Source: Escherichia coli
GTDB lineage: Bacteria; Pseudomonadota; Gammaproteobacteria; Enterobacterales; Enterobacteriaceae
Strand: one strand, 5' to 3'
DNA: 64,000 bases
Assembly: GCF_001677475.2 (NCBI RefSeq)
Contig: NZ_CP015229.1
Part shown: piece after piece, positions 54,430-54,460 of the stretch
How positions within the stretch are numbered: position 1 is the first letter of the stretch
Layout: the number at the start of each line of letters is the position of its first letter
Program-made: the position numbers and the translations under genes
The notes under the pieces: generated by a model
The model's input: the letters and a program-made list of their open reading frames with translations, nothing else
What the model was told of the DNA's origin: nothing
The model's database searches: none

Positions 54430-54460
54430 AATGCGCTTTTTTCCGCGCCGACCCGCCCCG
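54430..54460. promoter_or_regulatory. candidate cos site (cosN-like GGGCGG motif about 190 nt upstream of small terminase start)
   Basis: minus strand reads ACGGGGCGGGTCGGCGCGG then TTTTATCGTCATCATCATCATG, resembling the lambda left end; spacing to Nu1-like start matches lambda. Confidence 0.4.

Follow-up and report, generated by a model that had tools for sequence, protein, structure and literature searches.

A putative lambda-like cos site upstream of a DUF1441-type small terminase gene in a lambdoid Escherichia coli prophage

Introduction

Where does a lambdoid prophage keep its genome ends when its small terminase bears no sequence similarity to lambda Nu1 and its public record names no cos? 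The question arises in a 64,000-nt stretch of Escherichia coli DNA (RefSeq assembly GCF_001677475.2, contig NZ_CP015229.1; hereafter the window), in which RefSeq calls the small terminase a 'DUF1441 family protein' without cos annotation. A sequence-only reading had placed a candidate cos site at 54430-54460, citing a GGGCGG motif about 190 nt upstream of the small terminase start, a CGTCATCATCATCATG segment following it, and a resemblance to the lambda left end in sequence and spacing, and had suggested cos-type packaging. Here we ask whether this site is a cos, where its elements lie, what cohesive ends it would yield, and how it relates to known systems.

Results

The site matches lambda cosQ-cosN beyond chance

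The terminase genes run from 54256 to 51660, and the site therefore has to be read on the minus strand. On that strand the GGGCGG motif is indeed present, at 54458-54453, within ACACG GGGCGGGTCGG CGCGG at 54462-54443, and the elements follow one another in the order ATGATAACAATTATCATTTTTC GGGTCCT CCTGGCGGGGTGGGCCTGTACACG GGGCGGGTCGG CGCGGAAAAAAGCGCATTTTTGTGATTTTATCGTCATCATCATCATG (Table 1). The motif lies 202 nt upstream of the small terminase (TerS) ATG at 54256, which becomes phage bp 203 compared with bp 191 for lambda Nu1, so the earlier figure of about 190 nt was roughly right. The segment said to follow the motif is found downstream of GGGCGG as TTTTATCGTCATCATCATCATG at 54422-54401, a position that adjoins the interval 54430-54460 but falls outside it.

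When the lambda cosQ-cosN 82-mer was aligned with the whole window on both strands, the top local alignment fell at this site. It scored 23, where the background was 8.9 +/- 1.5 and the next best unrelated alignment scored 14; the site is the single best match of lambda cosQ-cosN in the window. The composite pattern GGGTCCT-N18-28-CGGGGCGG is matched once in the 64 kb window, and 100 shuffles gave an expectation of 0. By itself, ACGGGGCGG has 2 matches in the window against 0.72 expected, which is not significant. The lambda match at this site exceeds chance, and the likeness to the lambda left end reaches beyond the motif first noticed, taking in cosQ, the left half of cosN, its flanks and a candidate cosB.

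The definition, conservation and general role of cosQ have been described previously (PMC4669245). In a lambda-like cos by the definition of Feiss and co-workers, this 7-bp GGGTCCT precedes the top-strand nick by about 30 bp; here it stands 24 nt before GGGCGG. The left half-site of cosN (bp 1-6, GGGCGG) is preceded by the 5'-CG flank, CG/GGGCGG occupying 54460-54453 (slashes mark predicted nick positions), and this half-site with its flank, CGGGGCGG, is that of lambda. The right flank of cosN, CGCGG, is likewise conserved with lambda. Five nucleotides upstream of cosQ sits the AT-rich palindrome ATGATAACAATTATCAT, whose lambda counterpart is GATGATAATCATTATCAC. This palindrome looks like a Fur box.

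Table 1. Candidate cos elements and neighbouring phage genes in the window
Feature	Sequence or description	Position	Strand	Basis or remark
Rz gene	Lysis gene	55470-54967	-	cos between Rz and terminase genes
AT-rich palindrome	ATGATAACAATTATCAT	54495..54511	-	Lambda alignment and coordinates
cosQ	GGGTCCT	54483..54489	-	Identical to the lambda 7-bp packaging-termination element
cosQ-cosN spacer	24 nt	54459..54482	-	Lambda 23; most DUF1441-TerS relatives 22
Putative cosN nicking site	CG/GGGCGGGTCGG/CG	54446..54460	-	Lambda alignment, family comparison
Right-hand block	CGCGGAAAAAAGCGCATTTTT (family consensus CGCGGRAAAMGGCKMRTTTTT)	54427..54447	-	Family alignments
Candidate R3 (TerS binding site)	TCGTCATCATCATCATG	54401..54417	-	Phage bp 42-58; subfamily-invariant, fits consensus TCATCATCTT
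Candidate I1 (IHF site)	TAAACTGTTGTTT	54384..54396	-	bp 63-75; 8/9 specified positions of YAANNNNTTGATW
Candidate R2, inverted vs R3 and R1	CCATCATCTT	54354..54363	+	Phage bp 96-105
Candidate R1	TCGACATCTT	54327..54336	-	Phage bp 123-132; last conserved position of the block common to PICI-like islands
Small terminase TerS	158 aa, DUF1441 / phrog_141	53780..54256	-	Pfam E 5.5e-49; PHROG E 7.6e-66
Large terminase TerL	707 aa, gpA type, ATPase and endonuclease domains	51660..53783	-	Pfam
Portal	Lambda-family	51451-49949	-	Family match

The adjacent terminase pairs a DUF1441 small subunit with a gpA-type large subunit

Terminases of the gpA family make 5'-extended cohesive ends. The large terminase (TerL) adjacent to the site belongs to this family, matching GpA_ATPase (PF05876, E about 5e-81) and GpA_nuclease (PF20454, E about 1e-83). 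Its identity to lambda gpA is 24% across almost the entire protein (BLASTP E 7e-19); its identity to the TerL of VT1-Sakai is 99.2%, and to that of phage Chi ~40%. No match to a pac-type (P22, T4 or Sf6-like) large terminase was found, TerL matching the gpA ATPase and nuclease families alone.

Directly downstream of the site lies a DUF1441 / phrog_141 TerS, 95% identical to VT1-Sakai H0025. BLASTP found no sequence similarity between this protein and Nu1 (E 0.48), DUF1441 was its sole Pfam match, with none to Phage_Nu1, and a sequence search against the PDB gave a spurious match alone (E 1.1). In an AlphaFold2 model (pLDDT 73.5), the N-terminus forms a strand-helix-helix-wing-helix unit, a MerR/gpNu1-like winged helix-turn-helix. 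The best Foldseek matches to the model were 7lw0_A (a viral small-terminase DNA-binding domain), 1j9i (the gpNu1 DNA-binding domain; probability 0.94, TM 0.57) and MerR-family domains, with probabilities of 0.94-0.99 and weak E-values (0.16-0.3). As modeled, the TerS N-terminus is predicted to fold like the gpNu1 DNA-binding domain.

Around the site, lysozyme and Rz are followed by a small ORF and a ~460-bp stretch free of long ORFs; TerS, TerL, the head-tail adaptor and the portal come next, then a ClpP-protease/capsid fusion and the genes for the decoration, tail completion, tail terminator, major tail, tape measure and J proteins. Each of the head and tail genes forms a full-length ORF, matches its family strongly and is apparently intact.

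The same site precedes DUF1441 TerS genes in other phages

We found the same site upstream of DUF1441 TerS genes in VT1-Sakai, several Stx2 phages, Fels-1, Gifsy-2, mEp460, mEp213/LLS, cdtI, Flotzy and Hafnia phage yong2. Gifsy-1 was tried as a direct precedent and dropped, its TerS being absent from the DUF1441 hits, and Gifsy-2 was used alone. Among complete E. coli genomes, the closest match to the region is 97.9% identical, and parts of the region occur in 1927/5426 genomes, with a median of 2 and up to 9 matching places per genome.

As indirect hints of physical ends at this site, several deposited records begin or end at the predicted place. The LLS record opens with GGGCGGCGCGCT, followed by CGCGGG, and annotates a 12-nt 5' cohesive end at position 1; for LLS and mEp213 this end is the inference of the authors together with M. 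Feiss (PMC12315714). The cdtI record opens at GGGCGG with GGGCGGGAGCGT, followed by CGCGG, and closes with ...GGGTCCT-22 nt-CCACG. In the yong2 record, the first bases are CGCGGG and the final 12 nt are those preceding CGCGGG. The ASU11 record is without 45 bp spanning cosN. Taken at the level of sequence, the site appears to belong to an already recognised set of phages in which a gpA terminase goes with a non-Nu1 (DUF1441) small subunit.

A pattern scan of IMG/VR returned >120 sites with a common layout: cosQ (GGGTCCT or an AGGTACT variant), a spacer of ~22 nt, ACG/GGGCGG plus six further bases, CGCGGRAAAMGGCTAGTTTTT, ~10 nt, an R3-like repeat and an IHF-like TTGAT. The window follows the DUF1441-type arrangement of block, ~10 nt and R3-like repeat, TCGTCATCATCATCATG beginning 9 nt after the right-hand block CGCGGAAAAAAGCGCATTTTT. 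The R3 position holds different repeats in other lineages of the family, the R3-like repeats of the IMG/VR sites being GTCATCATCATCATG, TCGTCATCACCAC, GGCGGCGGCAGC or CTGTCAGCAGCAG according to lineage.

In a second IMG/VR scan, which left the cosN left half unconstrained and yielded 101 unique cos-like sequences, cosQ ended 33 bp (n=1), 34 bp (n=87) or 35 bp (n=13) before CGCGG; the window has 35 bp, and chance matches were spread over 26-44 bp. Cue and Feiss (1998) are said to have described the role of cosQ in bottom-strand nicking. The constrained spacing seen across these sequences fits that published role.

The conserved cosN flanks lie one base pair closer together than in lambda

The gap between the conserved CG flanks of cosN is 11 bp, compared with 12 in lambda. 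Between ACG and CGCGG, the window has GGGCGGGTCGG and VT1-Sakai has GGGCGGGCGGG, both of 11 bp, and some close relatives have 10 bp; 12 bp separate the flanks in lambda and in 104/126 family sites from the IMG/VR scan. The 10/11-bp cosN class always occurs with a 24-nt cosQ spacer, the sum staying constant at 34-35 bp. Gifsy-2 is the converse, pairing a 20-nt spacer with flanks 14 bp apart. Twofold symmetry of the window cosN (CG+11+CG) extends to 3/7 pairs, compared with 5/8 in lambda, 4/8 in cdtI and 4/8 in LLS. By analogy with lambda, the bottom-strand nick would fall directly 5' of the block CGCGGAAAAAAGCGCATTTTT.

With 11 bp between the conserved flanks in place of the usual 12, the exact nick positions are ambiguous. 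We modestly favor an 11-nt 5' cohesive end, GGGCGGGTCGG (54458-54448), with the nicks following the CG flanks. This reading is preferred because the flanking CG is highly conserved (PMC4669245) and because cyanophage Cr-LKS3, with a related TerS and the same flanks, is reported to have 5'-extended cohesive ends with a 9-nt overhang, GGGCTCGCG (PMC9303873); its flanking CG dinucleotides and first four bases are as in lambda (PMC9303873). The main alternative, to which we give appreciable weight, is the 12-mer GGGGCGGGTCGG (54459-54448), with the stagger fixed at 12 and a lambda-like spacer of 23 nt; a 12-nt end would place one nick outside the conserved flank.

A telomere-phage paper gives no end lengths for PY54 and phiKO2. 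The SfI/SfV cos, a similar-looking 10-nt TGCCCGCCCC that is the reverse complement of GGGGCGGGCA, was set aside because it is defined as the 'gap' between run-off reads, which we take to imply 3' overhangs, as in an HK97-type system.

Candidate cosB elements follow the lambda layout

In lambda, R3 lies at bp 50-65, an IHF site lies between R3 and R2, and R2 is inverted relative to R3 and R1 (PMC9026076, PMC4669245). Between cosN and the TerS gene, the window has candidates for each of these elements in the same arrangement (Table 1), so that, at the level of sequence, the R3-IHF-inverted R2-R1 layout of a lambda-like cosB appears to be present. Three matches to TCATCATCTT, with at most 2 mismatches each, fall within 91 bp in the orientation -,+,-, where ~0.17 would be expected from the background density. 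The CGTCATCATCATCATG segment of the sequence-only reading has no homology to lambda R3 but stands at the equivalent position as a family-specific counterpart; it would be a different TerS recognition sequence at the R3-equivalent position.

The candidate I1 lies between R3 and R2, aligned with TAACTTAATGTTT of lambda. A scan of the window for the IHF consensus gave 52 matches against 55 expected by chance, and position alone is informative; perfect IHF consensus sites occur at the same place in sister lineages. A generic 10-mer repeat test of 101 family sequences against shuffles gave a median p of 0.43 for inverted R3/R2 and 0.36 for direct R3/R1. Because this test was not significant, we call the R sites candidates, backed by their position, by conservation within the subfamily, where the R3, I1, R2 and R1 blocks are near-invariant, and by repeats in two relatives: in Fels-1, whose TerS is 56% identical, the inverted R2 and R1 share TCATCATCTT at 10/10 positions, and in Gifsy-2 the equivalent R2 and R1 share TTCGACACTGAA at 12/12.

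PICI-like islands and mosaic phages delimit the unit

Some IMG/VR contigs resemble phage-inducible chromosomal islands (PICIs), encoding an integrase, Ash, a D5-type primase, SSB and capsid-protein homologues, with no terminase beside the site. Their sequence agrees with that of the window across the cosQ-R1 block and departs from it directly beyond on both sides, with unrelated sequence after TTCGACATCTT. Upstream, VT1-Sakai-type phages keep the palindrome ATGATAACAATTATCAT, and the islands have a terminator-like hairpin instead; the palindrome appears to lie outside the minimal cos copied by satellites. Because the islands keep exactly the cosQ-R1 block, the comparison points to 54489-54327 as the functional cos unit.

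A different boundary is seen in PhiR5_1 and many Stx1a phages, whose upstream homology to the window extends through cosQ (window 54703-54483). Downstream of cosQ, where PhiR5_1 was the only one of these phages examined, its sequence goes on with a lambda-type cosN, GGGCGGCGACCT, and a small terminase gene annotated as Nu1. Because the PhiR5_1 homology ends at cosQ and is followed by a lambda-type cosN and a Nu1 gene, cos is here a mosaic joint between modules.

Discussion

Taken together, these sequence comparisons indicate that the site is, with high probability, the cohesive-end (cos) site of a VT1-Sakai-type lambdoid E. coli prophage. The suggestion of cos-type packaging gains support from the cos elements themselves, from the gpA-type TerL and from the relatives with the same site.

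We infer binding, nicking, packaging direction and exact ends by analogy. Induction would give rise to phage concatemers, and the DUF1441-type TerS may bind the candidate CATCAT-type R sites of cosB through its predicted winged helix-turn-helix, probably aided by IHF bending the DNA at I1. TerS on cosB would then position the gpA-type TerL for staggered nicks in cosN, leaving 5'-extended cohesive ends. Packaging would run toward decreasing window coordinates, taking in the terminase genes first, and at the next cos, cosQ would be needed for the bottom-strand nick and for the end of packaging.

The rival explanation with most to recommend it, which we nevertheless consider improbable, is that the site is a relic: descended from a functional cos, in a prophage that is now defective, and uncut unless a related helper terminase acts on it. 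Matching places are frequent in E. coli genomes, as described above, and many lambdoid prophages are defective; the closest characterised relative, Sp15 (VT1-Sakai), is itself among the prophages with head or packaging defects (PMC2669165), although Sp15 DNA is packaged despite them (PMC2669165). At 64000 the window stops short of the prophage end, and the early and regulatory region of the prophage lies beyond the assessed stretch. Against a relic, all cos sub-elements are intact, as in the subfamily consensus, and there are full-length ORFs for TerS, TerL, portal, capsid fusion, adaptor, tail terminator, major tail, tape measure and J.

We regard it as very unlikely that the motif is a chance match or a regulatory element (a terminator, promoter or RNA) in the gap between Rz and TerS, unrelated to packaging. 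Such a reading could draw on the unremarkable number of matches to ACGGGGCGG alone and on a short GCGC...GCGC hairpin followed by a T-run at 54444-54427, but the composite cosQ-cosN match has zero chance expectation, and the conservation pattern and fixed spacing fit cos biology rather than a hairpin. At the motif, no promoter or intrinsic terminator was predicted, an Rfam search gave no match at E up to 1, and the folding energy was not unusual (z = -0.86). Less probable still is headful (pac) packaging, with the lambda-like motif a vestige. TerL is a full-length gpA-family protein with both domains, terminase type correlates with end type according to Casjens as cited in PMC12315714, and relatives with this TerL and TerS (LLS, Cr-LKS3) have been deposited or reported as 5'-extension cos phages.

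Assigning the site as a cos would give genome ends and a packaging type (cos, 5' extension) to a very common class of E. coli prophages. This class includes Stx-converting phages, and public annotation labels its TerS a 'DUF1441 family protein' or 'hypothetical protein' and gives no cos. It is also at this site that in-situ packaging would begin, and with it lateral transfer of flanking DNA and interactions between helper and satellite. Because lambda-like cos sites and the natural variation among them have been well described before, the scientific addition is small and the main use lies in annotation. The 10/11/12-bp variation with its compensating spacer is a modest lead on terminase mechanics; Vahanian et al. 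2017 (Virology 509:140) is reportedly the key survey of cosN variation. We tentatively suggest, at somewhat less than even confidence, that terminases of the VT1-Sakai-type subclass make cohesive ends of 10-11 nt, a shorter cosN being offset by the 24-nt spacer so that cosQ and the bottom nick stay 34-35 bp apart. If so, gpA-type terminases would set the bottom-strand nick by its distance from cosQ and cosB and the top-strand nick by the local sequence CG/GGGCGG, and natural cosN variants would offer a ready test of how both nicks are positioned.

Compared with lambda, the site shares cosQ GGGTCCT, the cosN left half and flank CGGGGCGG, the right flank CGCGG, the 35 bp from the end of cosQ to that flank, the order R3, IHF-like site, inverted R2 and R1, a gpA-type TerL and an AT-rich palindrome upstream of cosQ. 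The gene arrangement is also alike, cos lying between Rz and Nu1 in lambda and between Rz and TerS here, and the small terminase gene starts ~200 bp from the end in both (bp 203 here, 191 in lambda). It differs from lambda in its cohesive-end segment (11 bp compared with 12, with a different right half), its cosQ spacer (24 nt compared with 23) and its R sequences, which are unrelated (TCATCATCTT-type here, CGTTTCCTTTCT-type in lambda) and lie 8-30 bp nearer cosN. The terminases have also diverged, TerS being a DUF1441 protein with no sequence similarity to Nu1 and TerL being 24% identical to gpA.

The closest systems are VT1-Sakai (Sp15) and related Stx-converting and non-Stx lambdoid prophages, whose cos region is 87-88% identical over 94-100% of a 301-nt query. 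They share with the window the TerS (~95% identical), the TerL (99% identical), the 24-nt spacer and the R3/R2/R1 sequences, but their cosN right half is GGGCGGGCGGG or GGGCGGGCGG instead of GGGCGGGTCGG, in some the flanks are 10 bp apart, not 11, and their records are without cos annotation. Further away, mEp213/LLS, cdtI, mEp460, Fels-1 and Gifsy-2 have TerS proteins of the same family (34-56% identity to that of the window), cosQ or its AGGTACT variant, ACG/GGGCGG, the right block CGCGGRAAAMGGCTAGTTTTT with an R3-like element ~30 nt beyond it, and an IHF-like TTGAT site. Unlike the window, most of them combine a 22-nt spacer with flanks 12 bp apart, and several have other R-site sequences (CATCACCAC, GGCGGCGGCAGC, CTGTCAGCAG). 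Cr-LKS3 likewise pairs a gpA-like TerL with a TerS that matches that of the window at 31% identity, whereas its overhang is the 9-nt GGGCTCGCG and its host and genome are unrelated.

Satellites provide a last comparison. In the E. coli PICI EcCICFT073, cos1 and cos2 have a cosQ and cosN like those of lambda, and islands with two cos sites each are known (PMC6739421). The PICI-like IMG/VR contigs carry the cos type of the window; the site in the window, in contrast, precedes the phage's own TerS and TerL and would thus be a phage cos, not a satellite cos. The published PICI cosB is reported to differ from that of lambda or phage 80, whereas the PICI-like islands described here copy the phage-type cosB completely.

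The cos site as a mosaic joint

Judged by sequence comparison, the cos site of the window is a mosaic joint. The upstream 220 bp (window 54483-54703), which end with the last base of cosQ, are common to many Stx1a phages and to PhiR5_1. Past cosQ, PhiR5_1, the sole such phage checked downstream, continues with a lambda-type cosN and then a small terminase annotated as Nu1. In a separate set of phages, similarity to the window is confined to 54999-54523.

Upstream of cosQ lies a palindrome that is conserved between the window and lambda (lambda counterpart GATGATAATCATTATCAC, approximately 48452-48468) and that, by manual count, agrees with the Fur-box consensus GATAATGATAATCATTATC at approximately 15-16 of 19 positions. 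We found it at the phage-borne cos sites of VT1-Sakai, Flotzy, cdtI, and PhiR5_1; unlike these, the satellite copies of cos lack it.

At the cosQ position, AGGTACT replaces GGGTCCT in Fels-1, Gifsy-2, and many IMG/VR loci (for example, L026, L031, L051, and L068), which contrasts with the description of cosQ as essentially invariant. The interval from ACG to CGCGG, the conserved flanks of cosN, is 14 nt in Gifsy-2, and the spacer between cosQ and cosN is 20 nt.

Features of the prophage in the window
Feature	Position	Strand	Remark
Small terminase gene	53780-54256		
Palindrome ATGATAACAATTATCAT	54495-54511	minus	5 nt upstream of cosQ
Adjacent tRNA-Gly(TCC) and tRNA-Thr(TGT)	60068-60221	minus	within the prophage, with the lysis cassette downstream
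Fusion of ClpP-like prohead protease and major capsid protein	47980-50196	minus	738 aa; Gifsy-2-type head

Small terminase and cosN in deposited records

PHROGs assigns the DUF1441 protein of the window to terminase small subunit (phrog_141). RefSeq/PGAP labels it merely as "DUF1441 family protein" (NZ_CP013662.1), and the VT1-Sakai record enters the small terminase as "hypothetical protein". The prophage type that encodes this protein is very common.

The "complete genome" of the mitomycin-induced Escherichia phage ASU11 (ON416862.2) lacks, compared to its closest relatives, exactly 45 bp (TGAACACGGGGCGGGCGGGCGCGGAAAAAGGCGCATTTTTTGATT, locus position approximately 2030-2040), a gap that spans cosN. 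The virion ends were probably dropped during assembly, in which case the physical termini would fall inside the gap. Compared to mEp460 and LLS, mEp460_4F5 and Flotzy each miss 3 nt inside cosN.

Copies of cos on PICI-like islands

PICI-like islands in IMG/VR carry the phage-type cos copied whole, from cosQ through R1 and including cosB, with no terminase adjacent. Some loci have a single cos (L022, L041/L045, and L091) and others two, approximately 2.5 kb apart (L063 and L072); L030, L032, L111, and L127 are further examples with a phage-type cos. These islands encode an integrase, Ash, a D5-type primase, SSB, and PerC. Their head genes specify a ClpP-capsid fusion in some cases and, in the others, paired capsid and decoration proteins resembling lambda E and D. 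In L063, a 629-aa homologue of the protease-capsid fusion of the window lies between both cos sites.

In some islands, the two cos sites differ in R3 type (CATCAT with CACCAC, or GGCGGCGGCAGC with CATCAT), as if the island could make use of helpers of two specificities. EcCICFT073 is also known to have two cos sites, and its cosB was reported to be unlike that of its helper, the comparison there being with lambda and phage 80 only (PMC6739421).
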